64,000 nucleotides of DNA, taken from Acidobacteriota bacterium. GTDB taxonomy: Bacteria; Acidobacteriota; UBA6911; RPQK01; JACQSY01. Of the stretch, positions 8,929 to 42,668 are shown one piece after another. A program made the translations under genes and the position numbers. The stretch covers positions 22,845-86,844 of the forward strand of contig JACQSY010000043.1 in NCBI GenBank assembly GCA_016211085.1, written 5' to 3'. The stretch's first letter is position 1, and every line of letters starts with the position of its first letter. The notes under the pieces are model-generated. The model did no database searches. It saw only the letters and a list, made by a program, of their open reading frames with translations, and had not been told where the DNA came from.

Positions 8929-9669
8929 CTAAATCAATCCTGCCCGCTCCGCGCGGCGAATAGCTTCCAGGCGTGTGTGTGCATCTAATTTCTGCAGCAG
9001 ATGCTGCACGTGGTTGTTGACGGTGGTACGGCTAATATGAAGTTCTTGGGCGATTGACGCCGTTGACGCCCCTCGAGCCAGCCAGCATAAGACTTCCCGT
9101 TCACGGGGCGTGAGTTCCACGTGACGGGCTGCAGCCCGGCGAGAATGGATCAGTGCCCGTACCTGCTCCCCGGAAAGATCGGTCTGGGAAATAAGGAAAT
9201 CGCGAACTAACAGTTCCAAACGTTTTGGAAAGTCGACAGAATGAATGATGTGGATCGAGTACGGTGGCCTGGAATTCCCTGCCTTGACAAGCAGGACTGA
9301 AATGTTGCACCAGATCTTTCTCGCCCGAGTGTTTACCTGGATGTCGGAGTTGGCAACCGGCCGCTTATTGTGAACTTCCCGGCGAATAACACAGTCGGCT
9401 GAGCATATTGGTCCGCTCTCATCTGTTCCCCCCACCAGCTCCCAACAGGGTTGGCCTATAGCCTCTGAAGCTGCGATGCCGAAAAAAATCTCGGCCGCCT
9501 GATTCCAGGCCACAATCAACCCAGAAACATCGATAGCGAACGCGGGGTCAGCGGTGCTTTCGATGAGTTCGCGAATTTCTTCAAGGTGCATCTCGAACCC
9601 ATCACAGAAATGATGTTGATTGATTATTGCCTTCACAGCCGGAAAGCGCAAGTCTGAAATCAGATTCAC
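8929..9669 (-). CDS. PAS-domain LuxR-family transcriptional regulator
   Basis: C-terminal LuxR HTH (LTPREREVLCWLARGASTASIAQELHISRTTVNNHVQHLLQKL); N-terminal PAS-like fold; divergent from molybdoenzyme operon. Confidence 0.7.
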   Translation of the reverse strand: MNLISDLRFPAVKAIINQHHFCDGFEMHLEEIRELIESTADPAFAIDVSGLIVAWNQAAEIFFGIAASEAIGQPCWELVGGTDESGPICSADCVIRREVHNKRPVANSDIQVNTRARKIWCNISVLLVKAGNSRPPYSIHIIHSVDFPKRLELLVRDFLISQTDLSGEQVRALIHSRRAAARHVELTPREREVLCWLARGASTASIAQELHISRTTVNNHVQHLLQKLDAHTRLEAIRRAERAGLI

Positions 9670-9741: not shown

Positions 9742-11403
9742 ATGAGTCTTGATCTTACAACTAAGTCGAAGCAGCACCCGAGTTGTTCGGCAAGAAAACT
9801 CATCGTCTTTGGTTTGCTTGGGAGTGTTTTTTCAGCTGGTTGCATGCGGCCGCGGGAAGGCAGCCAAGTAACAGGAAATCTGACACCTGAGACAAGGACG
9901 GCGTCTTCTGCGAGATTATTGGAACTCGGGAAAACCGCCTACGAGAAGAACTGTGCTCCGTGTCATGGGTTGCAAGGGGATGGGCAGGGAGCAGCTTCTT
10001 ATCTGCTCTATCCGAAGCCTCGCAATTTCATCCTAGCTAAATACCGGCTTGTGTCCACCTGGGACTACGCTCCCGCCGATGAAGATCTCTTCCGAACGAT
10101 TTCGCGTGGCATGCCGGGCTCAGCCATGCCCTCCTGGGCGCATCTGCCGGAAGAGACGCGATGGGGGTTGGTTCATTACATAAAGTCATTTGCGCAAAAC
10201 CCCATTGAGATTGGCCCGGACCGTCAACCCACAGGTGTGGGCGACACACCTAGCGGCCGCATCAAGGTCCCCCCTGAGACACCCTATACCCCAGAAGCGA
10301 AGGTGCGCGCCCAGCAACTCTTTAAGACCAGTTGTGCTCCTTGCCATGGGCCGGAGGGCAAAGGAGATGGTCAGCAGGAACAAGAGGATTCGGAAGGTTT
10401 CCGCCTTCGGCCCCGCGACTTGACAGCGGGCATTTTTAAAGGGAGTCCTGACCCTTCAGAAGTGTATAAGCGGATTGTGGCCGGGCTGCCGGGTTCACCT
10501 ATGCCCGCAAGCCTGCATCTCTACGGGAATGCCGCGTGGGACGTAGTCCATTTCATTCTGGAGATGTCGAGCCCCGAACAAAGAGCAAGGATGGAGATGA
10601 AGCGTTTTCAGATTCCCGCCACGCGTGTTGACAGACTGCCTGACCATCCGGGTGACTCCATCTGGAGAAGCACCCCTGCGGTTAACCTGCACCTCATGCC
10701 GTTATGGTGGCGCAATAACCGTCCCGAAGTCGCTGCCGTGCAGGCCCTGCATAATGGGAAGGAAATCGCGATTCAGATAATCTGGTCCGATCCAACGCAC
10801 GATCATACCGCGATGCGACCTCAGGACTTCAGGGACGCCGCGGCTATTGAGTTTTCGCTGACTCCTGATCCTCCGTTCTTTGGCATGGGCGGGGAAGCCG
10901 CACATGCGGAGTCGGTTAATATCTGGATGTGGAAGTCCGAACGGCAGGCCGACCTGGAGCCTGCTTTTCAGGATCTGGACAAGATTTACCCCAACATCGG
11001 TATTGATTCGTACCCCAACCTGCTGCGTTCACCCCTGGAGCAGCCGACGCGCCGTGCGCTGACGCTCGAGTCAGACCCAACGTTTGTTACCGGCTGGGGG
11101 ACAAAAAACATCGTCTCGGACCCTACGCGGAAGAGTTCAGTTGAAGACCTTGCCGCTAGGGGATTTGGCACTCTCAAGGCTCGTCCCATGGTTGACCAGC
11201 AGGTGACCGCCACCGGAGTGTACATGACTGGATCTTACCGCGTTGTTTTCAGAAGGACGCTGGCCGGTAAAGGAAAGAGCGCAGTGTCACTTCGACCCGG
11301 AAGCCGAATTCCTGTCAGCTTTGCTGTTTGGGACGGCAGCGCTGGCGATCGTGACGGTAAAAAGTCGATCACAATTTGGCAAGAGCTTTCTATATCGAAT
11401 TAG
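9742..11403 (+). CDS. gamma-type subunit: probable lipoprotein with two class-I cytochrome c domains fused to an EB_dh (ethylbenzene-dehydrogenase gamma/NxrC/DdhC-like) heme-b domain
   Basis: Signal + candidate lipobox (VFSAGC); two CAPCHG heme-c motifs each in a cyt c551/c552-like context; C-terminal ~230 aa resembles EB_dh domain (…MPLWWRNNRPEVAAV…IWSDPTHDH…GMGGEAAH…NIWMWKSE…). Confidence 0.55.
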   Translation: MSLDLTTKSKQHPSCSARKLIVFGLLGSVFSAGCMRPREGSQVTGNLTPETRTASSARLLELGKTAYEKNCAPCHGLQGDGQGAASYLLYPKPRNFILAKYRLVSTWDYAPADEDLFRTISRGMPGSAMPSWAHLPEETRWGLVHYIKSFAQNPIEIGPDRQPTGVGDTPSGRIKVPPETPYTPEAKVRAQQLFKTSCAPCHGPEGKGDGQQEQEDSEGFRLRPRDLTAGIFKGSPDPSEVYKRIVAGLPGSPMPASLHLYGNAAWDVVHFILEMSSPEQRARMEMKRFQIPATRVDRLPDHPGDSIWRSTPAVNLHLMPLWWRNNRPEVAAVQALHNGKEIAIQIIWSDPTHDHTAMRPQDFRDAAAIEFSLTPDPPFFGMGGEAAHAESVNIWMWKSERQADLEPAFQDLDKIYPNIGIDSYPNLLRSPLEQPTRRALTLESDPTFVTGWGTKNIVSDPTRKSSVEDLAARGFGTLKARPMVDQQVTATGVYMTGSYRVVFRRTLAGKGKSAVSLRPGSRIPVSFAVWDGSAGDRDGKKSITIWQELSISN

Positions 11404-11454: not shown

Positions 11455-14400
11455 ATGCCGGATGAATCTCAGAAAACCGATCGCAAATTAACCCGGCGTA
11501 ACTTCTTGCAATGGGTTGGAGTTGGAACAGGAGGCGCCCTATTGGCACTGGAGCCCGGGTGTCGTTTATTGCAACCTGTGGTTACGGACGAAAATCCCCT
11601 TCACAGAGAGGTGGCCCGTGATTGGGAAAAAATTTATCACGACCAGTACAAATATGATCATTTCTTCGACTGGGTGTGCTCCCCTAATGACACCCACGCA
11701 TGCCGCATTCGCGCCTATGTCCGGAACGGAATTGTCGTGCGCTCTGGTGAGACTTACAACTACCACCAATACGCAGATCTCTATGGTAACCACGCTACCA
11801 GCAATTGGGAACCTCGACAATGCGCCAAAGGTTACACCTTTCACCGTGTCATTTACGGTCCCTACCGCCTGCGCCACCCCATCGTCCGGAAGGGGTGGAA
11901 GGCCTGGGAGGAGGCGGGATTTCCCGAGCTGACGCCTGAACTCCGGTCCAAATATATGTTTGACGCACGCGGTCAGGACGAGTTCATTCAGATCACCTGG
12001 GAAGATGCTTTCCACTGTATCGCCAAAGCACTGGTGGCTATTTCGAAGCGGTATAGCGGCGAGAACGGGAAGAAAAGGTTGCTGGCCCAAGGCTACCAGC
12101 CCGAGATGGTTGAAGCCGCGGGCGGGGCCGGCACCCGATGCATCAAGATGCGGGGAGGCATGGGGCTGCTCGGGGTGTTAGGGAAATACGGAATGTACCG
12201 GTTTAACAACTCCCTGGCATTGTTGGATTCGCTCATCCGAAACGTCGGTCCCGACAAGGCGCTGGGAGGCCGGAACTGGTCCAACTACACTTGGCACGGC
12301 GATCAGGCGCCAGGTCACCCTTGGATCCATGGCCTGCAGGCATCGGACTGCGACTTCAACGACCTTCGATTCTCCAAGCTGATTATCATGGACGGCAAGA
12401 ATCTGGTCGAAAACAAATTGACCGATTCGCACTGGTTTATCGAGTGCATGGAGCGGGGCGGTAAGGTCGTCGTCATTGCACCCGAATACGGCCCTCCGTC
12501 GACGAAGGCTGACTACTGGGTCCCCATCCGTCCGGCTACCGACGCGGCACTCTGGCTTGGCATCACCCGACTCCTGATTGAACGCAAGGCTTATGACGAA
12601 GACTTTCTAAAACGATTTACTGATTTCCCCCTATTGGTGCGCACCGACAACCTACGGCGGTTGCGCGCGCACGAAGTTTTTGCCAACTACAAGAGTTCCC
12701 TGTCGCCCGATGGCCCCTCGATGAAAATTCAGGGCCTGACGCAGCAACAACACGAGGCGCTCGGTGATTTTGTTATCTGGGAGACCGAAGCGAACGCGCC
12801 CCGGCCCGCGACCCGAGATCAAGTCGGAAAATCAATGCCCTTCAAACCGGCCCTGGAAGGGAGTTGGCAAGTGCGTCTGGCTAAAGGCGGCACAGTACGA
12901 GTGGCCACACTATGGACGTTGTATCAAACACACTTGAAGGACTACCACCTCGACACCGTCTGTGAAATCACTCGAGCGCCTCGCCATCTGATTGAGCAAC
13001 TGGCCGACGACATTGCTACCATGAAGCCGGTAGCCATCCATCAGGGAGAGGGGATTAATCACTGGTTCCACGCCACGGAAATGAATCGCGCCGCCTATCT
13101 TCCCTTGATGCTCACGGGCAACATTGGCAAACCGGGAGCGGGGTGCCACACCTGGGCGGGCAATTATAAGGCAGCCGTTTTCCAGGGATCCGCTTGGTCT
13201 GGTCCAGGTTTTAAGGGCTGGGTGGCCGAAGACCCCTTCCATCCCAATTTGGACCCGAATACTTCCGGCAAGGACATCCCCGCCCACGCTTACACGAAGG
13301 ACGAGGAGCCGGCTTATTGGAACCATGGTGATCTTGCTCTGGTAGTGGACACTCCCAAGTTTGGCCGCAAGAATTTCACCGGAACGACGCACATGCCCAC
13401 CCCTACCAAGGCGATACTCTTTACCAACGTCAACCTGATTAACAATGCCAAGTGGGCCTACGGGGTAATCAAAAACGTCAACCCCAACGTCGAGATGATC
13501 GTTTCCTTCGACATCCAAATGACCGCCTCGATCGAGTACTCCGACATCGCCCTGCCTGCCAATTCCTGGCTCGAGTTTGAAGATCTGGAAGTGACGGCCA
13601 GTTGTTCCAACCCGTTTCTGCAAATCTGGAAAGGCGGCATCACGCCGGTATTCAACAGCAAGGATGATCTGACGATCATTGCCGGCATCGCCGCAGCTCT
13701 CTCGGAGGTAATGGGGGACAAACGCTTTCGGGACTATTTTAAGTTCGAACTGGAAGGAAAGCGAAGTGTCTACCTGCAGCGATTGCTGGATTCTTCCACG
13801 ACCACTGCCGGCTACAAAGTCGAAGACGTCATGGCTGGAAAGTACGGCCCTCCGGGAGCCGCGCTGATGAACTTCCGCACCTATCCGCGGATCCCGTTTT
13901 ACGAGCAGATTCACGATAGCGAACCATTCCAGACCGACACCGGCCGCCTGAATGCCTATGCGGATATCCCAGAAGCAATCGAATACGGCGAAAACTTCAT
14001 CGTGCACAGAGAGGGACCGGAAGCAACCCCCTATCTCCCCAATGTCATTATCAGCAGCAATCCGTACGTACGACCGGAAGACTACGGGATCTCCCCAAAA
14101 GCTGAGCACTGGGACGCGCGCACCATTCGAAATATCAAGATGCCGTGGAGCCAAGTCAAGGAGACCCGGAACTTTCTGTGGGAGAAAGGCTACCAGTTCT
14201 ATTGCCTGACGCCCAAGACTCGCCACCGGGTCCACAGTTCTTGGTCCAATGTCGACTGGCACATGCTCTACGACTCAAACTTCGGCGACCCGTTCCGCCT
14301 GGACAAGCGTGCCCCATCCGTCGGAGAGCATCAGTTGCACATCAATCCTGCCGCGGCTCGAGATCTAGGAATCAACGATGGCGACTACGTCTTTGTCGAC

Positions 14401-14916
14401 GCTAATCCAGCCGATCGTCCTTACCTGAATGCCAACCCCGCGGATCCTTTCTACCGGGTATCGCGTTGCATGCTGCGGGTTAAGTACAATCACGCCTACC
14501 CGTACAACGTCGTGATGATGAAGCACGCGCCCTTTATCGCTACCGAGAAGAGCGTCAAGGCGCATGAGACCCGTCCGGACGGCAGGGCCCTATCGGAAAA
14601 CACTGGCTACCAGGCCAACCTGCGATATGGCTCGCAGCAGTCCATTACGCGCAACTGGCACATGCCTATGCACCAGACCGACAACCTGTTTCACAAGGCC
14701 AAGGTCTCCATGGCATTCATTTTCGGCGGCGAAGCCGACAACCACGCGCTCAATACAGTTCCCAAAGAGACCCTGATCCGGATCACCAAGGCGGAAGATG
14801 GAGGGCTCGGTGGAAAAGGGATTTGGAAGCCAGCCACCACCGGACATACACCGGATAACGAAAGCGAAACAATGAAGCTTTATCTGGAAGGTGGACTGAC
14901 TAGGGTGAGCAAATGA
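11455..14916 (+). CDS. Tat-exported molybdopterin oxidoreductase alpha subunit, NarG/NxrA-like (type II DMSO reductase family)
   Basis: Twin-arginine signal (TRRNFLQWVGVGTGGALLA); 1153 aa; N-terminal FS0 region aligns to NarG HGVNCTGSCSWKIYVKNG as CSPNDTHACRIRAYVRNG (C-x3-D-x3-C) followed by downstream Cys (PRQCAKG); length and motifs match periplasmic NXR/pNAR lineage. Confidence 0.85.
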   Translation: MPDESQKTDRKLTRRNFLQWVGVGTGGALLALEPGCRLLQPVVTDENPLHREVARDWEKIYHDQYKYDHFFDWVCSPNDTHACRIRAYVRNGIVVRSGETYNYHQYADLYGNHATSNWEPRQCAKGYTFHRVIYGPYRLRHPIVRKGWKAWEEAGFPELTPELRSKYMFDARGQDEFIQITWEDAFHCIAKALVAISKRYSGENGKKRLLAQGYQPEMVEAAGGAGTRCIKMRGGMGLLGVLGKYGMYRFNNSLALLDSLIRNVGPDKALGGRNWSNYTWHGDQAPGHPWIHGLQASDCDFNDLRFSKLIIMDGKNLVENKLTDSHWFIECMERGGKVVVIAPEYGPPSTKADYWVPIRPATDAALWLGITRLLIERKAYDEDFLKRFTDFPLLVRTDNLRRLRAHEVFANYKSSLSPDGPSMKIQGLTQQQHEALGDFVIWETEANAPRPATRDQVGKSMPFKPALEGSWQVRLAKGGTVRVATLWTLYQTHLKDYHLDTVCEITRAPRHLIEQLADDIATMKPVAIHQGEGINHWFHATEMNRAAYLPLMLTGNIGKPGAGCHTWAGNYKAAVFQGSAWSGPGFKGWVAEDPFHPNLDPNTSGKDIPAHAYTKDEEPAYWNHGDLALVVDTPKFGRKNFTGTTHMPTPTKAILFTNVNLINNAKWAYGVIKNVNPNVEMIVSFDIQMTASIEYSDIALPANSWLEFEDLEVTASCSNPFLQIWKGGITPVFNSKDDLTIIAGIAAALSEVMGDKRFRDYFKFELEGKRSVYLQRLLDSSTTTAGYKVEDVMAGKYGPPGAALMNFRTYPRIPFYEQIHDSEPFQTDTGRLNAYADIPEAIEYGENFIVHREGPEATPYLPNVIISSNPYVRPEDYGISPKAEHWDARTIRNIKMPWSQVKETRNFLWEKGYQFYCLTPKTRHRVHSSWSNVDWHMLYDSNFGDPFRLDKRAPSVGEHQLHINPAAARDLGINDGDYVFVDANPADRPYLNANPADPFYRVSRCMLRVKYNHAYPYNVVMMKHAPFIATEKSVKAHETRPDGRALSENTGYQANLRYGSQQSITRNWHMPMHQTDNLFHKAKVSMAFIFGGEADNHALNTVPKETLIRITKAEDGGLGGKGIWKPATTGHTPDNESETMKLYLEGGLTRVSK

Positions 14917-14966
14917 GGGACAACGAATGCCTGATCTTTATCCGGCTCGGAAGTAGAGGGAGAAAA

Positions 14967-15329
14967 ATGCCCTACAACGATCCTGATCCGAAGGATCCGA
15001 CGATGCTGGTTGGCGTTGAAATACCTGCTGAGCAGGATGCAGACCTCGAAATGGCATACGCTTTCGCTGAAGAGTTCGCCGCCATGGGGTTTTCGGAAAA
15101 GCGTCTGCTGTCTCTCTTCCACCAGCCCTTTTATTCCGCTGCTTATCGCGCATGCAAGAACTTGGGCGAGGAGAAAATCAAGTCCGTCATTCGGGAAGCT
15201 CTCCATGTGTGGGGCGGTTCCCGGTTCGTCATCCAAGAGAAGCGCGACAGCCTCGACACATCGAGGGATAGTCATGGAGCAGCAGAAACCGGGCCGCGCA
15301 TCGGAAGAAATGAGGCCGGCTATGAGTAA
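14967..15329 (+). CDS. small acidic hypothetical protein between alpha and beta subunit genes
   Basis: 120 aa ORF from MPYNDPDPKD; stop overlaps the beta-subunit start in an ATGAGTAA arrangement (translational coupling); no recognised domain. Confidence 0.35.
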   Translation: MPYNDPDPKDPTMLVGVEIPAEQDADLEMAYAFAEEFAAMGFSEKRLLSLFHQPFYSAAYRACKNLGEEKIKSVIREALHVWGGSRFVIQEKRDSLDTSRDSHGAAETGPRIGRNEAGYE

Positions 15330-16590
15330 AGTGTACAACTGGCAACTCGGGCGTGAAATGAGTTACCCGTATGAGGCGAAATTTCCCGAACGTCAGTTCG
15401 CCTTTGTGTTCAACATCAACCGTTGCATTGCCTGTCAAAGCTGCACCATGGCATGCAAATCCACGTGGACCTTCAGCAAAGGCCAGGAACACATGTGGTG
15501 GGCTAATGTGGAGACGAAGCCCTACGGCGGCTACCCCCAGTTCTGGGATGTAAAGATCCTTGAATTGCTGGAGAAGGCAAACCCTGAAGGTCAGCGATGG
15601 ACCGGCCCGACTTCCGACAATGCAACGTCGTTGTATGGACGCTTTGCCGGACAGACCATTTTTGAGGCGGCGGAAAAAACACTGGACCCTCCAAGTTCTC
15701 GCGTCTTGGGATATCTGCCTGCGGACGAGGAGTGGAACTCACCGAATATTTATGAAGACAACCCGGTAGGCAAGAGGGGCGTCCGCGACAGGCTGCACGA
15801 GACGGGCGAACAACTTCCGGTCCATAATACTTGGTTCTTCTACCTGGCGCGGATCTGTAATCACTGCACCTACCCGGCTTGCCTAGCCGCTTGCCCGCGC
15901 AAGGCGCTCTACAAACGGCCGGAAGACGGCATCGTGCTGCTGGATCAAAGCGAGTGCCGCGGCTACCGAAAGTGCGTAGAGGCGTGTCCCTACAAGAAGA
16001 CCATGTATCGTGGCAACACCCGTGTCTCCGAGAAGTGCATCGCTTGTTATCCGCGAGTCGAGGCGACCGACCCCGAGAGCGAAGGCGAGCCAATGGAGAC
16101 CCGATGCATGACGGCCTGCATTGGGCAGATCCGGATGCAAGGATTGGTGAAACTGAACCCTGACGGAACTTGGGCGGAGGACCGGTACCACCCCCTGTAT
16201 TATTTGGTTCAAGTGGCCAAAGTAGCCTTGCCACTTTATCCCCAGTTGGGGACTTCGCCGAACGGCTACTACATCCCGCCGCGCTGGGTTCCCCGGGAAT
16301 ATTTGCGGCAGATGTTTGGCCCTGGAGTCGACCGCGCATTGGAACGTTATAACAATCCCGACCGGGAACTGCTGGCAGTGTTGCAGCTGTTCCGGCGCTC
16401 CAACCGGATTATTTACCGTTATGAAATCAAGGAAGGTCCGCTGGTTTATGAAGGCACCTATCGGGGCAGACCCGTACGCATTTACAACGATACAGCGATC
16501 GCGTTTGGCAAAAACGGCACGGAACTGTTTCGCACCAGCGTGGAGGAACCAGTGCATGTGCGTCCCGGCAAGCACCAGAATTCGATTTGA
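15322..16590 (+). CDS. iron-sulfur beta subunit, NarH/NxrB-like (four Fe-S clusters)
   Basis: Ferredoxin-type Cys clusters CIACQSCTMAC, CNHCTYPACLAACP, CRGYRKCVEACP, CIACYPRV…CMTAC in NarH order; start at MSKVYNWQ (alternative upstream Met at 15274). Confidence 0.85.
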   Translation: MSKVYNWQLGREMSYPYEAKFPERQFAFVFNINRCIACQSCTMACKSTWTFSKGQEHMWWANVETKPYGGYPQFWDVKILELLEKANPEGQRWTGPTSDNATSLYGRFAGQTIFEAAEKTLDPPSSRVLGYLPADEEWNSPNIYEDNPVGKRGVRDRLHETGEQLPVHNTWFFYLARICNHCTYPACLAACPRKALYKRPEDGIVLLDQSECRGYRKCVEACPYKKTMYRGNTRVSEKCIACYPRVEATDPESEGEPMETRCMTACIGQIRMQGLVKLNPDGTWAEDRYHPLYYLVQVAKVALPLYPQLGTSPNGYYIPPRWVPREYLRQMFGPGVDRALERYNNPDRELLAVLQLFRRSNRIIYRYEIKEGPLVYEGTYRGRPVRIYNDTAIAFGKNGTELFRTSVEEPVHVRPGKHQNSI

Positions 16591-16619
16591 CAACCCCGCA
16601 GACTGAAGGAACCAAAGGA

Positions 16620-17447
16620 ATGACTCCCAGTGACGATCAACGCCTTGGGGACGAAGCTCTCTGTCGCAGTGTTTTTTACAATCTGCTGTCGCTGGCATTG
16701 CACCCCCCGACAGCGGAAATTTGCAGTGCCATAAAATCAGAAAGTGCGGACCTTGCCCTGCGAGAGGCTGCGGCTGTACTCGACGCGTCCCCCATAGATC
16801 AGACTTCCACAGGGGGGTCCGAAAAGGGGAATCGCCGTCCGGATCTGGGCTCGCGGGTTGATCAATGGATCGCGACTTTTGACGGTCTCTCCCTGCAACT
16901 GTTGCTCTCTTCATATGGACAGCTGTTCGGCCATACAACCAGAGGGCCGGTTTGCCCTTATGAGACGGAATACGGTCAGGAAGCAGTTTTTCAGCAGCCG
17001 CGTCAGCTGGCGCAAATTACAGGGTTTTATCGCGCCTTCGGACTTGCCACACGAAGCGCTGAGCGCGAGCGGCCCGATCACATCAGCTGCCAACTGGAAT
17101 TCCTACAGTTTCTTTCCCGCAAGGAGGCCTATGCGCTGGGATGCGGAGGTTTCCCGATGCTGGAGGAGACCCGGAAGGCGACTCGACTCTTCCTGCGGGA
17201 TCACCTGGGCCGGTATGGAAGGGCCTTTGCGCATATGCTTCGAGAACACGAGCCGGAAGGCTTTTTCGGCAGACTGGCCGACCTGATGTTCGACTTTATT
17301 ACTTTCGAATGCCGGCGCCTGCGAATTGAGGCGGGTCCGCCCCTGCTGCAGCTCCGGACGGACGGGGAGGGCCATGTGCCAATGGCCTGCGGCAGCGGGG
17401 AATCCGAACTGGTGCAGCTGGAAACTCCCTTTTCATCCGCCAGGTGA
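16620..17447 (+). CDS. TorD/NarJ/DmsD-family redox enzyme maturation chaperone (delta subunit)
   Basis: TorD-like signature region (…CRSVFYNLLSLALHPP…); positioned after alpha/beta as in narJ/serD/ddhD; start at ATG preceded by AAGGA (a TTG at 16587 overlapping the beta stop is an alternative). Confidence 0.65.
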   Translation: MTPSDDQRLGDEALCRSVFYNLLSLALHPPTAEICSAIKSESADLALREAAAVLDASPIDQTSTGGSEKGNRRPDLGSRVDQWIATFDGLSLQLLLSSYGQLFGHTTRGPVCPYETEYGQEAVFQQPRQLAQITGFYRAFGLATRSAERERPDHISCQLEFLQFLSRKEAYALGCGGFPMLEETRKATRLFLRDHLGRYGRAFAHMLREHEPEGFFGRLADLMFDFITFECRRLRIEAGPPLLQLRTDGEGHVPMACGSGESELVQLETPFSSAR

Positions 17448-17555
17448 GACCGAAAAAGATGCCCGAGCTTCAACTTGCCGTGGTTTGAGCGCCGAAGCGG
17501 CAGTAGGAGACTACGAAGAGAGGCCCTTGCGGCAATTGGAGATAAAGTTGACGCA

Positions 17556-18794
17556 ATGAAAGTTCATGACTCTGGCGGAAACCTCGCTCTTTCGTGCCGC
17601 ATCGACTACGATGCGCGACTGGTGGAAGAGGCCGTCCTGTTGAGGATGGCCAGCCATCCTGAAGAAGCCAGATTCCGCAAGAGCCGCAACCCAATCTATG
17701 AAGTGGTTGATAGCGAACAACGAGAAAAGCGCTTTCGAGAATTCCACAGCGAATGGTTTGTTCGCCTCAGGATGGGAGAGCCTATTGTCGCCGCGCTTGG
17801 GGAGCAACCGACGCTTGGCGAAGACGTCCTCATCTGTTGTGTTGTTCGGGCGCTGTCCTCTTACGAAGAAGGGGCAGATCTGCACCAGCGGCGCAGTAAC
17901 GGAGGCGTGGGAGAACAGGGTCATCCGAACCGTGACAGGTTGAGAACGAATGTTCGGTCTCATTGCGTGGGGCCATCCACCAACGAGGCTCTCTCAGGTT
18001 CGATGAAAACACCCCGCCAGGACGCACATATGTATGCGAGCACGCTTCGGACACAGACTTCCCAAGACACTTCCATTGCAGGGGACAGTTCTAAGACGGA
18101 AAACGCCTCGAACCGGGCCGCCGCGGAAAAGATCATCGTAGTTAAACTCCAGCCTGCCTCCTTTTTAAATTCCGATCGCCTGCGGGCATTCCTCCGGCAC
18201 GAATTTATGCATATTGTCGATATGCTGGATCCCCGGTTTGGCTACCAGCCGGTGTTGCCCAAATCGGAATACGGCCCGGCTTATGACCATCTGGTGAAAG
18301 ATCGATACGGGGTTCTCTGGGACACCTGGATCGACGGACGATTGCAACGCCGAGGCTGGGCAGGCGGCCACGTTTGCGGGCAGCGACGCGCGGAGTTCAT
18401 CGCGACTTTTCCCATGTGCGGGGATGAGGTGGAAGAAAAATTTGCGCAGTTCTTCAACGCCGATTTCCTGACTCACGGGGCTTTGGCGGCATTCGCTTTA
18501 AATCCAGGGGGGGGCTCCAAGGTAGGAGTTGGGCGGGGCCGGGCGCAACCGTGTCCGCTCTGCCGATTCCCTACATCAGATTTCATCGATGGCACACGCC
18601 AGTTAACAAAGGAGGCAAAACAACAGATCGCGGTGGATTTTCCCAACTGGCGACCCGGGCACGGACTTTGCCGTCAATGTTCCGATTTGTACTTGGCCCG
18701 CGGATTATCCCAGAGCGCGGAAGCTGGGCTGCCGGGAACCCAGCGCCGCCAGGCGGATAACCTCGCCGCCTATGAAATCAATAAAAAAGCCTGA
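17556..18794 (+). CDS. hypothetical protein with HExxH motif and C-terminal CxxC…CxxC zinc-ribbon
   Basis: 412 aa from MKVHDSGG (RBS GGAGA 14 nt upstream); contains RHEFMHIVD (HExxH) and CPLCRF…CRQCSDLY; no family recognised. Confidence 0.45.
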   Translation: MKVHDSGGNLALSCRIDYDARLVEEAVLLRMASHPEEARFRKSRNPIYEVVDSEQREKRFREFHSEWFVRLRMGEPIVAALGEQPTLGEDVLICCVVRALSSYEEGADLHQRRSNGGVGEQGHPNRDRLRTNVRSHCVGPSTNEALSGSMKTPRQDAHMYASTLRTQTSQDTSIAGDSSKTENASNRAAAEKIIVVKLQPASFLNSDRLRAFLRHEFMHIVDMLDPRFGYQPVLPKSEYGPAYDHLVKDRYGVLWDTWIDGRLQRRGWAGGHVCGQRRAEFIATFPMCGDEVEEKFAQFFNADFLTHGALAAFALNPGGGSKVGVGRGRAQPCPLCRFPTSDFIDGTRQLTKEAKQQIAVDFPNWRPGHGLCRQCSDLYLARGLSQSAEAGLPGTQRRQADNLAAYEINKKA

Positions 18795-18872: not shown

Positions 18873-19271
18873 GTGATCTTTTCAACGAAGTGCCAACACG
18901 CCATTCGGGCATTGACCTACCTGGCCCGGTCGGGCAAGTCCTGCGCCCGAGAAATCAGTCGCAATCAGAAGTTGCCCTACCATTTTACTGGAAAGATACT
19001 TCAGGTCCTGCAGAAGACGGGCTTTGTGAGATCGGTAAGAGGTGCCGGTGGAGGGTTTGTTCTTACGCGGCCGGCAAGCAAAATCCGTCTTATCGACGTC
19101 TGGTCAGCTATAGATGGAACTGAGAAATTTGAGGGGTGCCTCTACGGTTTGAACCAATGCTCAGAGCTGAAACCCTGTCCTTTGCATGAGAATTGGACAA
19201 TCATGCGCCGTCACATAGAAAAGAACTTGAGCAACCAGAGCATTGCAGATCTGACTTACCCCAAGACATGA
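18873..19271 (+). CDS. Rrf2-family transcriptional regulator (NsrR/IscR-like, three-Cys Fe-S ligand set)
   Basis: N-terminal Rrf2 wHTH (MIFSTKCQHAIRALTYLA…ISRNQKLPYHFTGKILQVLQKTGFVRSVRGAGGGFVLTRPA) and C-x6-C-x5-C cluster (CLYGLNQCSELKPC); GTG start. Confidence 0.8.
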   Translation: MIFSTKCQHAIRALTYLARSGKSCAREISRNQKLPYHFTGKILQVLQKTGFVRSVRGAGGGFVLTRPASKIRLIDVWSAIDGTEKFEGCLYGLNQCSELKPCPLHENWTIMRRHIEKNLSNQSIADLTYPKT

Positions 19272-19868: not shown

Positions 19869-20743
19869 GATTTATGCCATAGGCGCATCGCTCAAATCGC
19901 GAACACTCAAGCATTGGCGCTTACTGCTTGGCCGGCGTCTACAAAGACGAACGCAGACCGAGCGTTCCTGTTAGCGCCATCGGAAAGGATCCGCAAAAAT
20001 CATCTCTGAATGTGCAGTGCGGAAGAAATCAGAGAGGCCCGGCCCCGACTAGGAGCTTGGGGCAAATTGCTGTCGAGACCGGTTAAGAGCGAACTGAGGA
20101 AGGAGGCCCGTCTTCGGCGCGATTACTCCTGGGGCATGTCCGTCGCCGATTTCGAGCCTCCCGAGTTGGAGGTGTGACTCTGTTTTTCTGTCCTTTTACT
20201 CACGCAAGTTTCGGGCCAAAACTAGGATCCTTTTTGACACGGCGAAAAAAGGCTGAAAGCATAGCTGCTTGCGTGACAAAACGAGCTATGGCTACGAAAA
20301 GACACTCCGTCTGAAAACGCTGGCGCGTAAATTCTTGCGAGATTTGCCCCAGAGGAGTTGGCTTTGCGACCCAACTTTGCCGGCGGCGCTTGAGTCGAGC
20401 CATGGCCTTGATCTTCTAAGGGCGAGAACTCGAAAAGGATTCCACTCAAGAATTCCCGGCAAGTTTGACGGGGCAACAGGAGGCTTGGTGCGCTGTTTGC
20501 ACCGTTAAGGTTCTTTGAAGATGCGGGTAGAGTGTACTATTGACACCTGCAGAAGAAATGCCCGCGCCAGGCAAGCTCAGCGCGGTCTGACATCGGAGCC
20601 GCGGCGTGAGCGAGCGGCCACTGAGTGCTGAGGACTGAGCAACGATACTCGCTCAGCACTCAGTCCTGAAAGTGCCTGTCTCTATCAGGCACCGCGGAGG
20701 ACATTACTTGTGCAGGATGCAATACGTAGCCAGTGAGGAGCCA

Positions 20744-22036
20744 ATGAGGCCATCCGTATTTCAATCACTTCTTCCGGAGCGGGGGGACTTTTATTTTTTG
20801 TTCCTGCGCATTTTCACCCTGCTGGGGGGGATAGCATGGTACCTGCTGGTCCCCTATGAGGCCGAACGCCGCAATTTTCTCGCTTGGCTCCTGGGGGCGT
20901 ATGCCTTCTACACCGTATGTCTTTATGCATTGGTGATCCTTCGTCCCGCGGCCATTCGCATTCTCTACCTGGTGACCCTCGCAGTTGATCTCGGTTTTGT
21001 CTACATGCTGATTCTGCATGTTGGCCGGCTGAGGGGGAGTTTTTTCATCGCCTACTATCTCTTGACTGCAGTTCACTCGTTTTATTTTGGTCTGAAAGTC
21101 GGACTCCCTTCGGCACTGGTCATATCTGCCTTATACCTTTCCAGCTATTATCGCTTGAATGGTCCAGTGGTGATTCCGTGGCCTGATCTCATCTTGAGAA
21201 TCTCTTTCTTATTTCTCATCGCGCTCTCGTTGGGTCTTTTGTCCGACCGCGAAAAACGAATGCGGAAAAAACTGCTCGAGCTCAATCAGGAACTGAGCCG
21301 CAAGAATGCCATCCTGGAGCAAACATATCGACACCTTTCAATAGGAAAGTTGATTGGCGAGATTGCAGAAGGTATCAACGGTCCCCTCGGCACCATTTCG
21401 CTACGTTCGGAATTTTTGATGGCCGAAGCGCGCGACCGCAAGATGCCTGCTGAGTTCGCGCGCGGGCTTGAGGTGATGCATCGCTGCAGTCACCAGGTGG
21501 CGCAGGTGGTAAGAAGTCTCCTGGCATTTTCCAAACAGGAGTACGAGCAGCAAGCGCTGAACTTTAACGAGCTGGTGGAGGATGCGCTGTTATTAACGGA
21601 GCGAGGTTTCAAGGGAAAGAATATCACCGTTCAAAAGCAGCTGGAGCCACAGTTGCCCTCCGTTCTGGGAGATTCCTCCGAACTTAAGGGGGTATTGATC
21701 AGCCTCATAAGCAACGCCATCGACGCTTTGCCGAAGGGAGGGACGATCAGGCTGTATACCCGCACCAGTTTTGCTGAGGGCCGATCGGTTATCTGTGAGG
21801 TGCACGATAACGGAACCGGTATTCCGGAAGAGGACCTGGAAATAATTTTTAATCCTTTCTTCACTACCAAGGCCAAAACGGGGGGGATCGGGCTTGGCTT
21901 GTCCACCAGCCTCAGCGTGATGAAAAAGCATAATGGGCTCATTGCGGTGCGCAGCCTTCTTGGGAAGGGTTCGGTGTTCACTATGTCGCTGCCGGCTTTT
22001 CGTCCGGCGCTTCCTGTTCGCAAGGGCGCAGCCTGA
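20744..22036 (+). CDS. membrane-embedded sensor histidine kinase (polytopic N-terminus, HisKA + HATPase_c)
   Basis: Five to six N-terminal TM helices, H-box (…IAEGINGPLGTI…), N/G boxes (HDNGTGIPEE…GGIGLGLS); start uncertain (ORF opens at 20672). Confidence 0.8.
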   Translation: MRPSVFQSLLPERGDFYFLFLRIFTLLGGIAWYLLVPYEAERRNFLAWLLGAYAFYTVCLYALVILRPAAIRILYLVTLAVDLGFVYMLILHVGRLRGSFFIAYYLLTAVHSFYFGLKVGLPSALVISALYLSSYYRLNGPVVIPWPDLILRISFLFLIALSLGLLSDREKRMRKKLLELNQELSRKNAILEQTYRHLSIGKLIGEIAEGINGPLGTISLRSEFLMAEARDRKMPAEFARGLEVMHRCSHQVAQVVRSLLAFSKQEYEQQALNFNELVEDALLLTERGFKGKNITVQKQLEPQLPSVLGDSSELKGVLISLISNAIDALPKGGTIRLYTRTSFAEGRSVICEVHDNGTGIPEEDLEIIFNPFFTTKAKTGGIGLGLSTSLSVMKKHNGLIAVRSLLGKGSVFTMSLPAFRPALPVRKGAA

Positions 22037-22041
22037 AAGTG

Positions 22042-23397
22042 ATGGCAGAAAAAAGCAGAGTTTTGATCCTGGACGAAGCCGACATGGCGGAATCAATCGG
22101 GCTGATGCTGGCGCGTAAGGGATTTGATTGCAACGTTTGTGTGAACCGCAGCGAGCTCGGACGCGTCATTGCATCCACCCGACCAGACATAGTAGTCACC
22201 GGGGTACGGCCGTCGGGTGCGAAGTCCTGGACCATTCTCGAGGTCATCAAGAAGCAAAATCCCGATCTTCCTGTAGTTATTGTCACTGGGTTCGCGACCG
22301 TGGATGCGGCTGTCGAAGCCATGAAAAGGGGGGCTGCTGACTTCATCTGCAAACCCTTCCACGCGGACGAACTGTTTTTGAAAATTCAACGAGCCCTTAC
22401 CCACGTGCAAACTCAAGCGGAAAATTCGCTGCTTCGTCATCAGCTGTATGCCGACGATCACGTATTCCCGGAGCTTCTCGGCCGAAGCAGCGCTATGAAG
22501 CGCGTTTTCGAGATGCTGGAAAGAGTGCACGCCTCGGAGAGCTGTGTTTTTCTTACCGGCGAGAGCGGAACCGGAAAAGAACTGGTCGCACGGGTGATTC
22601 ATCGCATGAGTGCCCGACGCCACGAAAAATTTTTTCCGGTGAATTGCGCGGGAATGGCAGAGAACCTGTTGGAGAGGGAGGTATTCGGACACGAAAAGCA
22701 AGCGTATGCCGGCGCGGCCAGTGCCCGGAGGGGCCTCCTTGAAATGGCGGAACATGGGACCCTTTACCTGAAAGAGGTGGGTGAGACCTCGCTTTCCTTT
22801 CAGGCTAGCCTGCTGAACGTCCTGGAGCACAACGAATTTCATCGCGTAGGAGGGAACAGGGTACTCCACGCCGACGTGCGAGTGATTGCTTCCTCCAGAA
22901 ACAATCTGGACGATCGCATCGCTTCGGGCGCTTTCCGCAAAGACCTGTACTACCGACTGTGCGTGGTACGCATTCATCTGCCTTCCTTACGAGAACGTAA
23001 AGAGGACATTCCTCTGCTGGTGGACCATTTTCTTCACAAGCATGGGCGAAAGATTTCCAAACGGATCACCGGAGTCAGCGCTGAAGCGCTCCAGAAACTG
23101 GAGGCACATTCCTGGCCTGGGAATATCCGGGAACTTGAGAACGTGCTCGAGCGCGCCGTTATCATGGCCGCGGGACAATCAATCACTCCCGCAGATTTGC
23201 TTCTGGAAAGAGCTTCCGAGATCTCAGAACCAGGGCGCCTTACCACGCTGGAGGCCATGGAAAAACAACTGATTGAACGGACTCTGGTCGAGTGTAGGTG
23301 GAATAAGAGCGTAGTGGCCAAAAAGCTTGGCATTGGAAGACGGACGCTTTATGACAAGGCGTCTCGTTTCGGAATTGGCCTCAAACCTGCAGAGTAA
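22042..23397 (+). CDS. sigma-54-dependent response regulator (NtrC family: receiver + AAA+ + Fis-type HTH)
   Basis: Receiver Asp region, Walker A GESGTGKE, GAFTGA-like ESELFGHEKGAYAGA, C-terminal HTH; adjacent to kinase. Confidence 0.85.
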   Translation: MAEKSRVLILDEADMAESIGLMLARKGFDCNVCVNRSELGRVIASTRPDIVVTGVRPSGAKSWTILEVIKKQNPDLPVVIVTGFATVDAAVEAMKRGAADFICKPFHADELFLKIQRALTHVQTQAENSLLRHQLYADDHVFPELLGRSSAMKRVFEMLERVHASESCVFLTGESGTGKELVARVIHRMSARRHEKFFPVNCAGMAENLLEREVFGHEKQAYAGAASARRGLLEMAEHGTLYLKEVGETSLSFQASLLNVLEHNEFHRVGGNRVLHADVRVIASSRNNLDDRIASGAFRKDLYYRLCVVRIHLPSLRERKEDIPLLVDHFLHKHGRKISKRITGVSAEALQKLEAHSWPGNIRELENVLERAVIMAAGQSITPADLLLERASEISEPGRLTTLEAMEKQLIERTLVECRWNKSVVAKKLGIGRRTLYDKASRFGIGLKPAE

Positions 23398-24293: not shown

Positions 24294-26330
24294 ATGAAAA
24301 TTAAAGGACGCTTTCAAATCTGGGTCGTCGGCTCAGTAATGGTCCTTGGATTCCTCAGTGTCTTTCTTGCCGCCCGCCTGGAAGTGGATCAACAGTATGG
24401 TCCGCTCGATAAGGAATTTTATTTATCTGATACCCAAGTCCAATTCATCAGGCCGGGTTTGGAGTTTCAAATTCTTGAAGTGACCATTGGAGCCGATCGC
24501 AAGCCGGTCGTAAAGATTTCACTCAAGGATCCCAAAGGCTTGCCTCTGGACCGCGATGGCATTTTTACGCCGGGACCGATTTCAACTACGTTCGTTATTG
24601 GCTACATTCCTGCTAACGCCACTCAGTACACGAACTACAATATTCGGAATGTTGCCAGCACGATAACCGGAAAAACCGCCACTCAGGCTACCAGTGATTC
24701 CGGGGGAAAATGGGCCAAGGTGGAAGACGGCGTGTACACGTACACTTTTGGAAATGCGCTGCCGGCAGGCTTCGACGGAAGCCTCACCCACACCATTGCT
24801 GCTTATGCCCGGCGCGACCTGACGGAATTCAATTTGGATCGCTACGTAAAGAACGCCGTATTTCACTGGGTGCCCAACGGGGGGGAAGTGAAGCAATGGC
24901 GCGATGTCGTTCGCACTGCGAATTGTAACGAGTGCCATAACCCGCTTGCTCTGCACGGAGGGGCGCGGCAAGAAGTAGGGTTGTGCATCCTGTGCCATCA
25001 GCCGCAGACCTCCGACCCTGATACAGGTAACACCGTGGATTTCAAGGTCATGATTCACAAGATCCACATGGGTCCCAATCTCCCCAGCGCCAAGGCTGGA
25101 AAACCGTACCAGATTATCGGAAACCAGGGTAGGGTATTTAACTTTTCCGAACACGTGCTCTTTCCGCAAGACATCCGTAATTGTGAAAAATGTCATAAGA
25201 ACGCCACCCAGGGCCTTGCGTACCTGCTGAAACCATCCGCAGCCGCCTGCGGCTCCTGCCATGATGACGTGAACTTTGCTACGGGTGTAGGCCACCCTGG
25301 CGGACCCCAGGCTTCCGACAATCTGTGCGCCACCTGTCATATTCCCGAGGGGGAGCTGGAGTTTGACGCCTCCATTAAAGGTGCGCACAAGATCCCAGCG
25401 AAATCAGCAGAGCTGAAGGGCCTTCAGTTGAAGATTTTAGGGGTCAGCAATACGGCGCCCGGCCAAAGTCCCACAGTTCTCTTTACGGTTACTGAAAAGG
25501 ATGGAACGGCTGTTGCTCCGAGTTCTCTCAACTTCTTACAGCTGGTGCTAAGCGGGCCGACCAAGGACTATGAGAATCTGATCATTGAGCCGGCACGCGA
25601 TGCGGTTCCCACGGCGGATGGCTACACGTACACTTTCAAAGGGAAAATTCCCGAAAACGCCAAGGGGAGCTTCATGGTTGGCGGGGAAGCTTATCGCATG
25701 GTCACGCTGGCTGCTGGAACTACCAAGGAACGACAGGTCCGCGAAACCGCCAATAACCCCGTGCAGTACGTTGCCGTCACGGATGCGAACGCAGTACCGC
25801 GCCGCCAGGTGGTTGCCACCGCCAACTGCAACCGTTGTCACGATGAGATGGTGATGCACGGAACCATCCGGCACGATCCGGAGAAATATTGCGTCGTCTG
25901 TCATATTCCATCAGGTACGGACGCGGCACGCCGGCCTGCAGACCAAATGCCGCCTCAATCTCGTGATTTCCGCTTCATGGTGCACCGCATCCACACGGGT
26001 GCGGATTTGACGCGGGAGTTCTCAATTTACGGCTTTGGCGGAGCCCTGGAGGCGAACGAGATTAACTTCCCGGGCGACCGGCGCGATTGCGAAAAGTGCC
26101 ACGTGAATAACTCCTATCGGCTGCCTCTGGCATCCGGCCTGCAACCGGTGCCGGTGCAGCGGGAATTCTTTACTCCCTATCCTCCCACGACAGCCGCGTG
26201 CCTGGGCTGCCATGACGGCGAAGCCGCGGCCGCTCATGCTTACACCATGATCACGCCGTTTGGTGAAGCGTGCGCTGCGTGCCACGGTACGGGTAGAGAA
26301 TTCGCTGTCGAGAGGGTTCATGCCCGTTAA
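24294..26330 (+). CDS. MtrC/OmcA-like decaheme c-type cytochrome (two pentaheme halves)
   Basis: Ten CxxCH motifs (CNECH, CILCH, CEKCH, CGSCH, CATCH | CNRCH, CVVCH, CEKCH, CLGCH, CAACH) split 5+5 over 678 aa; N-terminal hydrophobic signal/anchor. Confidence 0.65.
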   Translation: MKIKGRFQIWVVGSVMVLGFLSVFLAARLEVDQQYGPLDKEFYLSDTQVQFIRPGLEFQILEVTIGADRKPVVKISLKDPKGLPLDRDGIFTPGPISTTFVIGYIPANATQYTNYNIRNVASTITGKTATQATSDSGGKWAKVEDGVYTYTFGNALPAGFDGSLTHTIAAYARRDLTEFNLDRYVKNAVFHWVPNGGEVKQWRDVVRTANCNECHNPLALHGGARQEVGLCILCHQPQTSDPDTGNTVDFKVMIHKIHMGPNLPSAKAGKPYQIIGNQGRVFNFSEHVLFPQDIRNCEKCHKNATQGLAYLLKPSAAACGSCHDDVNFATGVGHPGGPQASDNLCATCHIPEGELEFDASIKGAHKIPAKSAELKGLQLKILGVSNTAPGQSPTVLFTVTEKDGTAVAPSSLNFLQLVLSGPTKDYENLIIEPARDAVPTADGYTYTFKGKIPENAKGSFMVGGEAYRMVTLAAGTTKERQVRETANNPVQYVAVTDANAVPRRQVVATANCNRCHDEMVMHGTIRHDPEKYCVVCHIPSGTDAARRPADQMPPQSRDFRFMVHRIHTGADLTREFSIYGFGGALEANEINFPGDRRDCEKCHVNNSYRLPLASGLQPVPVQREFFTPYPPTTAACLGCHDGEAAAAHAYTMITPFGEACAACHGTGREFAVERVHAR

Positions 26331-26379
26331 TCTCAGGTTGCGGGCGGGGGGCTGCAGAGCCGCGAACATTACCCGCGAT

Positions 26380-27270: not shown

Positions 27271-27281
27271 TCGAGGACCCT

Positions 27282-29216: not shown

Positions 29217-29446
29217 GGATCTTCTCTTTCGGCGGTTCGTTTATCAATCCTTACACACCCACGATTGTTTAGTATCTCGTCGTTGAAGAAAAAATAATCC
29301 ACGAGTGAATGGTTAGTAGCGAAAGGGTTTTTTTGGGGGAGATTGGCTCATTTATTGGGTGAAATACCATGGGCGCATTGGCCTCTTTCACCTTTAGTTA
29401 ACTTAAAGTTTTTTATGCACAGCAAGTTAGGAGATTGGCCATCGTA

Positions 29447-29462
29447 TGGCGATTCCCTTGCA
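29447..29462 (+). promoter_or_regulatory. possible sigma-54-type promoter (TGGC-N8-TTGCA) before cytochrome c gene
   Basis: tGGCgattcccTTGCAt with canonical GG/GC spacing; lies only ~22 nt before the ATG, so TSS geometry is tight. Confidence 0.3.
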
Positions 29463-29483
29463 TCAACCAACATGGAGGAAATT

Positions 29484-29828: not shown

Positions 29829-29950
29829 TCGGATCTCGCGTCGGAAACGGAGAGGACCCGCTTTATGGGAGACATTAGAAATTCGCAAAATACCTCCTCG
29901 CTTTTAAGCAGACGGCTTCTCCGTTCCGTCTTTCGTATTGGGAGCATCAA

Positions 29951-30439: not shown

Positions 30440-30558
30440 CAATCTGTTCGAGTAGCTTGCTTGACGCGGGTTCGTGGGGATGGGGAAACGTGGATCGAGC
30501 GATGCGAAGAGCCAGGATTTCTCAGCGAGGATTGAGTAAAACACGCAGGGGGTAAGTA

Positions 30559-32898: not shown

Positions 32899-32913
32899 CA
32901 GAAGGGCAATTTT

Positions 32914-33597: not shown

Positions 33598-33600
33598 AAG

Positions 33601-34971: not shown

Positions 34972-34991
34972 GAGCCAAGAGGCATTGATCG

Positions 34992-42564: not shown

Positions 42565-42668
42565 AAGCCCTCTCCAGGGTAAAGCCAAGAGCAGAGGGAT
42601 CTGTATTTGCGCCTTCAGGGGCTGATCGACCCGATAGCCTCTCGACTAAACAATCTCGAGGCAACTTG

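Follow-up and report, generated by a model that had tools for sequence, protein, structure and literature searches.

In Nitrospira, Nitrospina and anammox bacteria, it has yet to be settled how a periplasmic nitrite:nitrate oxidoreductase (NXR) transfers electrons to the membrane and how it is anchored there. This question is touched by a 64,000-nucleotide stretch of the Acidobacteriota assembly GCA_016211085.1 (contig JACQSY010000043.1, positions 22,845 to 86,844; hereafter the window, meaning the whole stretch analysed), in which the first gene of an NXR-type operon (positions 9742-11403) encodes a single 553-residue protein with two cytochrome c domains followed by an EB_dh haem b domain. 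The original prediction, made from the DNA letters alone, described this protein as the lipoprotein-like gamma subunit of a type II dimethyl sulfoxide (DMSO) reductase that hard-wires a path from haem c through haem b and the iron-sulphur (FeS) clusters to molybdenum (Mo) and dispenses with separate soluble cytochromes. Our analysis makes it very likely that the fused protein is the three-haem gamma subunit, carrying the electron wire, of a periplasmic NXR of the Nitrospira/Nitrospina/anammox type; this assessment is separate from the direction of electron flow, which is weighed below.

The predicted architecture was borne out by the reading frame and by profile searches. The open reading frame (ORF) starts with an ATG about 7 nucleotides downstream of a GGAG ribosome-binding site, and no other in-frame start occurs before codon 25. 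Its N-terminal part matched Cytochrom_C/Cytochrome_CBB3 of Pfam in two stretches (best at residues 61-149, 67.7 bits against a cut-off of 21.3), with the predicted haem c motif present twice (CAPCH at residues 71-75 and 198-202), and its C-terminal part matched EB_dh (PF09459) over the complete profile (residues 307-542, aligned with positions 3-236 of the 236-position profile; 76.1 bits, gathering score 33.3, E = 5.5e-21). Among chains in the Protein Data Bank (PDB), residues 59-280 matched Kustc0457 (6H5L_B; E = 1.8e-43, 42.7% identity over 213 columns), the dihaem cytochrome c partner of the nitrite-reducing, hydroxylamine oxidoreductase (HAO)-like Kustc0458 of Kuenenia, and residues 331-551 matched KsNxrC (7B04_C; E = 1.2e-24, 35.5% identity over 211 columns), the gamma subunit of the Kuenenia NXR (KsNXR). 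The EB_dh half also matched EbdC (2IVF_C), more weakly in sequence (E = 1.3e-8). As sequence comparisons, the PDB matches of both halves are far beyond chance.

Alignment with these relatives predicted a complete set of haem ligands. Met382 and Lys541 of the EB_dh domain correspond to Met155 and Lys305, the haem b ligands that Chicano et al. reported for KsNxrC, as in ethylbenzene dehydrogenase (EBDH; PMC8387239). Both CxxCH motifs, together with Met129 and Met254, align with their counterparts in Kustc0457, whose two haems are both six-coordinate. Across 218 fused homologues (31-57% identity), Cys71, Cys74, His75, Met129, Cys198, Cys201, His202 and Met254 were invariant (218 of 218), while the Met/Lys pair, for which the original prediction had proposed a check, was retained at each position in 216; alignments A1 and A2 gave the same picture. 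This conservation therefore strongly supports the prediction of a three-haem protein, in which two haems c have His/Met ligands and a single haem b has Met/Lys ligands. Class-I haems c with His/Met ligands typically have a high potential, and Met/Lys haem b has also been described as high potential.

We modelled the whole gamma chain without cofactors using AlphaFold2 (AF2). An alignment of the 23 close sequences alone gave an unusable model (mean predicted local distance difference test score, pLDDT, 63.5; predicted template modelling score, pTM, 0.59), which was remedied with a 134-sequence alignment (mean pLDDT 88.9, pTM 0.86). Foldseek comparison of the model with the PDB gave template modelling scores, on target, of 0.77 for NxrC, 0.84 for Kustc0457 and 0.81 for EbdC, and no solved chain in the PDB covered both halves. 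The stretch that joins the cytochrome part to the EB_dh part (residues ~280-306) was modelled at pLDDT 89-98, and its residues are invariant among the close relatives in alignment A1. Since the junction is both confidently modelled and invariant, a fixed domain arrangement appears more plausible than a flexible tether, and the model argues for domains that form one rigid body.

The N-terminus carries a signal that ends in VFSAGC, with Cys34 as the predicted lipidation site. The core lipobox pattern of PROSITE PS51257 was matched (LLGSVF-SA-G-C), with Cys34 inside the required position of 15-35, and Arg18 and Lys19 flank the hydrophobic region. No twin-arginine motif was found in this signal, which suggests export by the Sec system. 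Over its whole length, gamma has no 19-residue hydrophobic window reaching 1.6; there is no hydrophobic helix outside the signal, and the chain stops 12 residues past Lys541.

The type of the enzyme is indicated by the partner subunits encoded with gamma. The operon is tightly packed and translationally coupled, and runs in the order gamma, alpha, small ORF, beta, delta and a conserved unknown gene (Table 1). Alpha matched KsNxrA (7B04_B) at 1744 bits, with 62.4% identity over the first 370 aligned residues, and so falls within the range of identity to KsNxrA (about 60%) of bona fide enzymes of nitrite-oxidising bacteria (NOB; PMC8387239). Every residue named by Chicano et al. is conserved in alpha, which keeps the unusual FS0 site of three Cys and one Asp, the substrate residue Asn78, the Mo ligand Asp283 and the Cys aligned to Cys115 of KsNxrA; among related loci, the C-S-P-N-D-T-H-A-C motif occurred in 77 of 86 and the WHGDQ motif with its Asp in 71 of 86. 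Beta aligned with KsNxrB from end to end (residues 1-422 with 1-410, 578 bits). Its start is the ATG at 15322 (MSKVYNWQLGR...) and not the TTG at 15010, so the reading frame in the ORF list was 104 codons too long.

Table 1. Features of the fused gamma gene, its operon and the adjoining regulators (coordinates refer to the window; residue numbers to the encoded proteins)
Feature	Position	Strand	Basis
Fused gamma (Sec/lipobox signal, dihaem cytochrome c module, EB_dh haem b domain; 553 aa)	9742..11403	+	ORF, Pfam, alignments, AF2
Signal peptide, residues 1-34, lipobox-like end ...KLIVFGLLGSVFSAGC	9742..9843	+	PROSITE PS51257 core pattern
Dihaem cytochrome c module, Kustc0457-like, residues ~59-280	9916..10581	+	6H5L_B match, Foldseek
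Haem c motif 1, C71-A-P-C74-H75; predicted distal ligand Met129 at 10126-10128	9952..9966	+	Alignment
Haem c motif 2, C198-A-P-C201-H202; predicted distal ligand Met254 at 10501-10503	10333..10347	+	Alignment
EB_dh (NxrC/EbdC-type) haem b domain, residues 307-542	10660..11367	+	Pfam PF09459, 7B04_C match
Predicted haem b axial ligands Met382 and Lys541	10885-10887 (Met382); 11362-11364 (Lys541)	+	Aligned to KsNxrC Met155/Lys305
Alpha, NxrA-type catalytic subunit with Mo-bis-pyranopterin guanine dinucleotide (Mo-bisPGD), 1153 aa, twin-arginine translocation (Tat) signal TRRNFLQ	11455..14916	+	7B04_B match
Alpha FS0/substrate motif C75-S-P-N78-D79-T-H-A-C83; Mo ligand Asp283 (WHGDQ)	11677-11703 (motif); 12301-12303 (Asp283)	+	
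Small conserved ORF, at most 138 aa, acidic; overlaps alpha stop codon and beta start codon	14913..15329	+	tblastn
Beta, NxrB-type, 422 aa, FS1-FS4	15322..16590	+	KsNxrB alignment, TIGR03478, Fer4_11
Delta, TorD/NarJ-type chaperone	16587..17447	+	Pfam Nitrate_red_del 2.6e-17; TIGR03482 3.2e-21
Conserved accessory protein, start uncertain (ATG at 17556)	17475..18794	+	Downstream of delta in 36 loci
Rrf2-family regulator (IscR/NsrR/RirA superfamily)	18873..19271	+	Pfam Rrf2 8.8e-29; NCBIfam at superfamily level only
Divergent PAS + LuxR/GerE-type regulator, candidate operon regulator	8929..9669	-	Pfam GerE 3.6e-19, PAS 1.3e-12

We further searched for the same fusion in relatives and found it to be widespread, contrary to the rarity implied by the original prediction. 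A protein database search with gamma yielded 1786 hits, and the top 120 protein clusters (61-100% identical) all contained the same three Pfam domains in an uninterrupted chain (120 of 120). These clusters derived from metagenome-assembled genomes (MAGs) of Acidobacteriota, NC10/Methylomirabilota and Planctomycetota, including an identical protein from an Acidobacteria MAG (P0001), and were named only as 'c-type cytochrome', 'ethylbenzene dehydrogenase-related protein' or 'mono/diheme cytochrome c family protein'. At E ≤ 1e-30 the matches comprised 657 clusters at 50% identity, with full-length fused matches down to about 31-32% identity. In a survey with one genome per species, at least 326 species-level genomes encoded a relative of the fused gamma; the best 80 genome matches were all MAGs, with no cultured nitrite oxidiser among them, and were distributed across Acidobacteriota, Methylomirabilota/Rokubacteria, Binatia, Planctomycetota, Latescibacterota, KSB1, Gemmatimonadota, Myxococcota, Desulfobacterota and others. 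The operon was conserved along with the protein: alpha lay directly 3' of the fused gamma in 78 of 83 loci, the remaining five being contig ends, and the full gene order from gamma to the conserved unknown gene was kept wherever the sequence of the locus sufficed. In a sister clade (gamma about 35% identical, alpha 56-67% identical), the order is alpha-x-beta-delta-gamma, and the fused gamma sits in the last, canonical gamma slot.

Two longer versions of the protein were also noted among the homologues. P0186 (755 residues) has a TorD/NarJ-like domain (PF02613) before the dihaem-EB_dh part and a C-terminal helix with a run of Arg, and P0159 (863 residues) joins the dihaem-EB_dh fusion to a histidine-kinase-like N-terminus. 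These two could be gene-calling merges on short contigs.

With NXR-type alpha and beta subunits in the operon of gamma and the ligands kept, a wire from Mo through FS0, FS1-4 and haem b to the two haems c is the natural reading, in keeping with a type II DMSO-reductase operon. We propose that delta, predicted from its family to act in cofactor insertion and Tat proofreading of alpha, would help to load alpha and beta with their cofactors in the cytoplasm, and that the Tat system would export both in folded form. Gamma would be exported unfolded by Sec, would on reaching the periplasm acquire one haem b and two covalently bound haems c, and would probably be lipid-modified at Cys34. The EB_dh domain may then dock gamma on the alpha-beta pair as NxrC does in 7B04, so that electrons could pass along Mo-bisPGD, FS0, FS1-4, the high-potential Met/Lys haem b and the two haems c in turn. 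A lipid anchor would account for an attachment to the membrane that needs no transmembrane subunit. Because gamma has no membrane-integral quinone site, a further redox partner is needed, and at the level of cytochrome c this onward or inward partner may be a bc1 complex, an alternative complex III (ACIII) or quinone reductase complex (Qrc)-type quinol module, a terminal oxidase or another cytochrome c. The idea that the fusion dispenses with soluble cytochromes is thus partly justified, in that a diffusible or separately encoded dihaem partner would be exchanged for a rigidly attached one, and partly not, as the enzyme has still to be connected with the quinone pool or with an oxidase. Genes for several c-type cytochromes lie within a few kilobases downstream of the operon.

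The direction in which this wire would run is a separate matter. We give respiratory reduction of nitrate, with electrons drawn from the cytochrome c pool, an even chance, whereas action as a nitrite oxidase, in which a cytochrome c oxidase would receive the electrons by way of haem b and the two haems c, is a possibility that we regard as tentative; a direction other than these two seems quite improbable. Nitrite oxidation agrees with the activity of the closest characterised relatives, the NXRs of Kuenenia, Nitrospira and Nitrospina, and with haem ligand sets of the high-potential type. It also agrees with oxidase genes in two related loci, where an aa3-type oxidase operon lies at a distance of 2 kb (L086) or a bd-like oxidase cluster is close by (L085), and MAG studies routinely label such genes nxr. 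However, the lack of a cultured nitrite oxidiser among the best 80 genome matches and their scatter over lineages not known as nitrifiers speak against it, as does the window itself, which is rich in anaerobic-type modules and in which no terminal oxidase was found over the 64 kb. Moreover, KsNXR is reversible, both oxidising nitrite and reducing nitrate in vitro (PMC8387239), and an enzyme belonging to the same broad clade occurs in Thermogutta, a cultured nitrate reducer. If the enzyme were a nitrite oxidase, the many MAG lineages with this operon would be unrecognised (facultative) nitrite oxidisers. More generally, metagenomic 'nxrA' matches in phyla outside the nitrifiers may belong either to nitrite oxidisers or to periplasmic nitrate reducers fed by cytochrome c.

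Several observations weigh against the reading of gamma as a lipid-anchored NXR subunit. In NCBIfam, gamma scored 114.3 bits with TIGR03477 (DMSO_red_II_gam), below the curated cut-off of 169.85, and aligned with this model in two stretches only; gamma belongs to a divergent NxrC-type branch. The lipobox is imperfect, with Ser at -3, and the PS51257 rule of a Lys or Arg within the first seven residues failed, the first basic residue being Lys8. Lipoproteins of Escherichia coli are sorted according to their +2 residue, a rule that may not apply in Acidobacteria. Here the +2 residue is Met, not Asp, from which inner and outer membrane cannot be told apart even if Cys34 is lipidated. The type of anchor also varies across the family, from a lipobox to an ordinary signal peptide or a C-terminal helix (8 of 217 distant homologues). 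Finally, the main nxrC of Nitrospira is encoded away from nxrAB, and a canonical gamma may for this reason lie elsewhere in the genome, of which 64 kb are in view.

The imperfect signal bears directly on a soluble alternative, in which signal peptidase I would cleave the precursor, Cys34 would stay unlipidated and gamma would belong to a soluble periplasmic complex such as those of EBDH, Ser, Clr and the Kuenenia NXR. Known EB_dh gamma subunits are indeed soluble. Of 115 close relatives, 70 had the strict core lipobox pattern, and a lipobox was present in 49 of 217 distant relatives, leaving 45 and 168, respectively, without it, many of them with AxA-type signals. Set against this, the Cys at the end of the hydrophobic region was kept in 21 of 23 relatives in alignment A1 although the rest of the N-terminus is unconserved, and a majority of the close relatives retain the strict pattern. 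We therefore regard a soluble gamma as unlikely in this protein. The lipobox-like signal of the original prediction stood up in its core pattern and Cys34, and the assignment as a lipoprotein is plausible here without extending to the family as a whole.

The distance between nxrC and nxrAB in Nitrospira bears on another alternative, that the fused protein is an accessory adaptor or shuttle like the 'alternative NxrC' (alt_NxrC) proteins and that a canonical single-haem NxrC encoded elsewhere docks the alpha-beta pair. The dihaem alt_NxrC_2 of Nitrospira moscoviensis, transcribed 2.5-4-fold below the core subunits and not counted among them by the authors who described it, provides a precedent. 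Nevertheless, the fused gene is the first cistron of an NXR-type operon in every locus with enough sequence, its sister-clade counterpart occupies the canonical gamma slot, and its EB_dh domain is complete with both ligands. Neither a second EB_dh gene nor a second dihaem module was present in the 64-kb window, and no further EB_dh gene was present in the 20-kb loci L001-L003. In addition, a MAG of Sulfuricaulis sp. (L085) carries both an operon with its own fused gamma and, at 12242-17336 on the minus strand, a 765-residue cytochrome c + EB_dh protein adjoining a 275-residue cytochrome c and a Cyt_bd_oxida_I protein. This second cluster is the published 'alt_NxrC / bd-like oxidase' cluster, and the co-occurrence of the two fused types in one genome makes them look functionally distinct. 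An adaptor role is accordingly very unlikely, and the operon-encoded three-haem gamma subunit is the better account.

An assembly or frameshift artefact that merged a cytochrome c gene with nxrC has practically no chance of being correct, being refuted by independent occurrences of the same architecture (every one of the top 120 clusters, at least 326 genomes, full-length matches to 31% identity) and by a junction that is conserved and confidently modelled.

We then compared the three-haem gamma subunit with known systems. KsNxrC (Kustd1704) shares the homologous EB_dh domain, the Met/Lys haem b ligands and a Sec-type signal, and its alpha and beta partners are close relatives of those encoded here. 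In contrast, it is a soluble, single-haem protein of about 290 residues without cytochrome c domains, and its gene follows nxrB instead of leading the operon. Kustc0457 has the same dihaem module as a free-standing protein of 226 residues, bound non-covalently to the octahaem enzyme and without an EB_dh fusion. Kustd1711, a dihaem cytochrome from the nxr cluster of Kuenenia (about +350 mV), was considered as the nearest relative of the N-terminal part and was not supported, as it is absent from the PDB sequence matches. EbdC, SerC, DdhC and ClrC resemble gamma in the EB_dh fold, the Met/Lys haem b, the periplasmic location and an operon with alpha, beta and delta; they differ in being soluble, single-haem subunits dependent on separate cytochromes c, usually encoded last in their operons and paired with alpha subunits that act on other substrates.

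The closest precedents are the alt_NxrC proteins. From Nitrospina gracilis, Lücker et al. (2013) reported 'alternative NxrC' proteins that combine one to three cytochrome c sites with a DMSO-reductase-like haem b domain; they noted that one alternative NxrC is conserved with Nitrospira and with the nxr cluster of Kuenenia. Mundinger et al. (2019) described alt_NxrC_2 of N. moscoviensis as a 66.8 kDa protein with a signal peptide, a dihaem cytochrome c part and a C-terminal transmembrane helix, the gene for which is clustered with those of a bd-like oxidase and two cytochromes c. Proteins of this kind (NITMOv2_3640, those of N. gracilis and of the anammox nxr cluster) share with gamma a signal peptide and the combination of c-type haem sites with a haem b domain, and have been proposed to connect NXR with the respiratory chain. 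Combining haem c sites and a haem b domain in one protein is hence already known, and with alt_NxrC proteins on record since 2013, the domain fusion will not surprise specialists. By its published description, on which our comparison relies, alt_NxrC_2 has a C-terminal transmembrane helix and coexists with a canonical NxrC, whereas the fused gamma here has no such helix, bears an N-terminal lipobox and is the sole gamma gene of its operon. The alt_NxrC cluster is separate from nxrAB, while the fused gamma gene opens an nxrAB-type operon. No match to Cyt_bd_oxida_I was found among the window ORFs scanned, and a homology search from a homologue with a C-terminal helix (P0172) recovered only environmental MAG proteins, with no NOB or anammox names; the cluster members of 10 divergent representatives likewise yielded no organism names.

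NXR homologues have been reported in NC10 relatives, Planctomycetota and other phyla without a description of a gamma subunit. We found no description of an in-operon, lipobox-bearing fused gamma in the open-access literature, which is weak evidence of novelty. The fused gamma is a widespread variant of a described type that differs in gene position, sole-gamma status and anchor, and the points that appear new are modest, namely the fusion as the only gamma gene of the operon and a predicted lipobox anchor in place of a C-terminal helix. For widespread uncultured bacteria of soil, groundwater and sediment, this operon type would nonetheless represent a built-in answer to the wiring of NXR, through a three-haem gamma that is often lipid-anchored.

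A Rosetta-stone argument would extend this answer to NXRs with separate subunits. Because an NxrC-type domain is rigidly fused to a Kustc0457-type module in hundreds of lineages, the unfused homologues may dock physiologically, and a testable prediction is that the free-standing partner of NxrC elsewhere is a Kustc0457-type dihaem cytochrome c. We consider it rather doubtful that unfused NxrC and Kustc0457-type homologues are docking partners and that the operon also marks a large nitrite-oxidising or nitrate-reducing guild. If this were true, the anammox NXR would pass electrons directly to the Kustc0457/Kustc0458 nitrite-reductase complex, and in Nitrospira and Nitrospina the actual connection to the membrane would be made by the dihaem alt_NxrC, which would answer how a periplasmic NXR is wired to the respiratory chain. 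The operon would then mark an overlooked guild, represented by the at least 326 species-level genomes, with a self-anchored three-haem NXR and a metabolism based on nitrite oxidation or on cytochrome-c-dependent nitrate reduction.

The remaining genes of the operon and its flanks provided further points of comparison. The small ORF product has no signal peptide, no transmembrane helix and no match in Pfam, NCBIfam or the PDB. Nevertheless, in each of the 43 loci long enough to include beta, a tblastn match to this ORF was located between alpha and beta, and the ORF was also present in the distant alpha-x-beta-delta-gamma clade (81-92 residues). It is possibly an assembly factor. In Kuenenia, too, genes labelled 'unknown' (kustd1701/1702) separate nxrA from nxrB. 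The accessory protein downstream of delta combines an HExxH-like motif, HEFMH, with a CPLC...CRQC pair at the C-terminus, has no signal peptide, transmembrane helix or match in Pfam, NCBIfam or the PDB, and may be the 'putative zinc finger' protein of the conserved nxr cluster in Lücker et al. An Rrf2 gene adjoins the operon, on one side or the other, in 15 of 83 loci (also in L001, L003, L005 and others), which suggests control of the operon in response to FeS status, nitric oxide or redox state. The divergent PAS-LuxR regulator showed weak NCBIfam similarity to helix-turn-helix proteins of the NarL/FixJ type, and its link to the operon is weak since it was a neighbour in only two of the 83 loci.

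Beyond the operon, the respiratory repertoire of the window is unusually dense and anaerobic in style, and a Qrc/ACIII-like module, a monohaem cytochrome c and MtrC-like multihaem cytochromes all lie within 5-25 kb of the operon. The region at 29343-36185 (plus strand) encodes a cytochrome c (161 residues), a c7-like cytochrome, a QrcB-like subunit of the molybdopterin family (779 residues, below the NCBIfam cut-off), an FeS protein, an NrfD membrane subunit and a tetrahaem class-I cytochrome c. This Qrc/ACIII-like quinone:cytochrome c module could be the membrane partner of the fused gamma. At 20672-23397 and 24294-29216 (plus strand), a sigma-54 two-component pair is followed by multihaem cytochromes (one MtrC/MtrF-like of 678 residues, a second of 336 residues) and a 644-residue protein that matched no family and might be a porin. 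Together these genes may form a module for extracellular electron transfer, at a distance of about 13 kb from the NXR-type operon; a functional link between the two, for example in metal-coupled nitrate reduction, is pure speculation. Two more NrfD-family subunits with multihaem cytochromes and a NapC/NirT-type cytochrome are encoded at 36762-38060 (minus strand), 42486-45388 (plus strand) and 57864-59366 (plus strand), and genes for a 2-oxoacid:ferredoxin oxidoreductase occupy positions 54541-56771.

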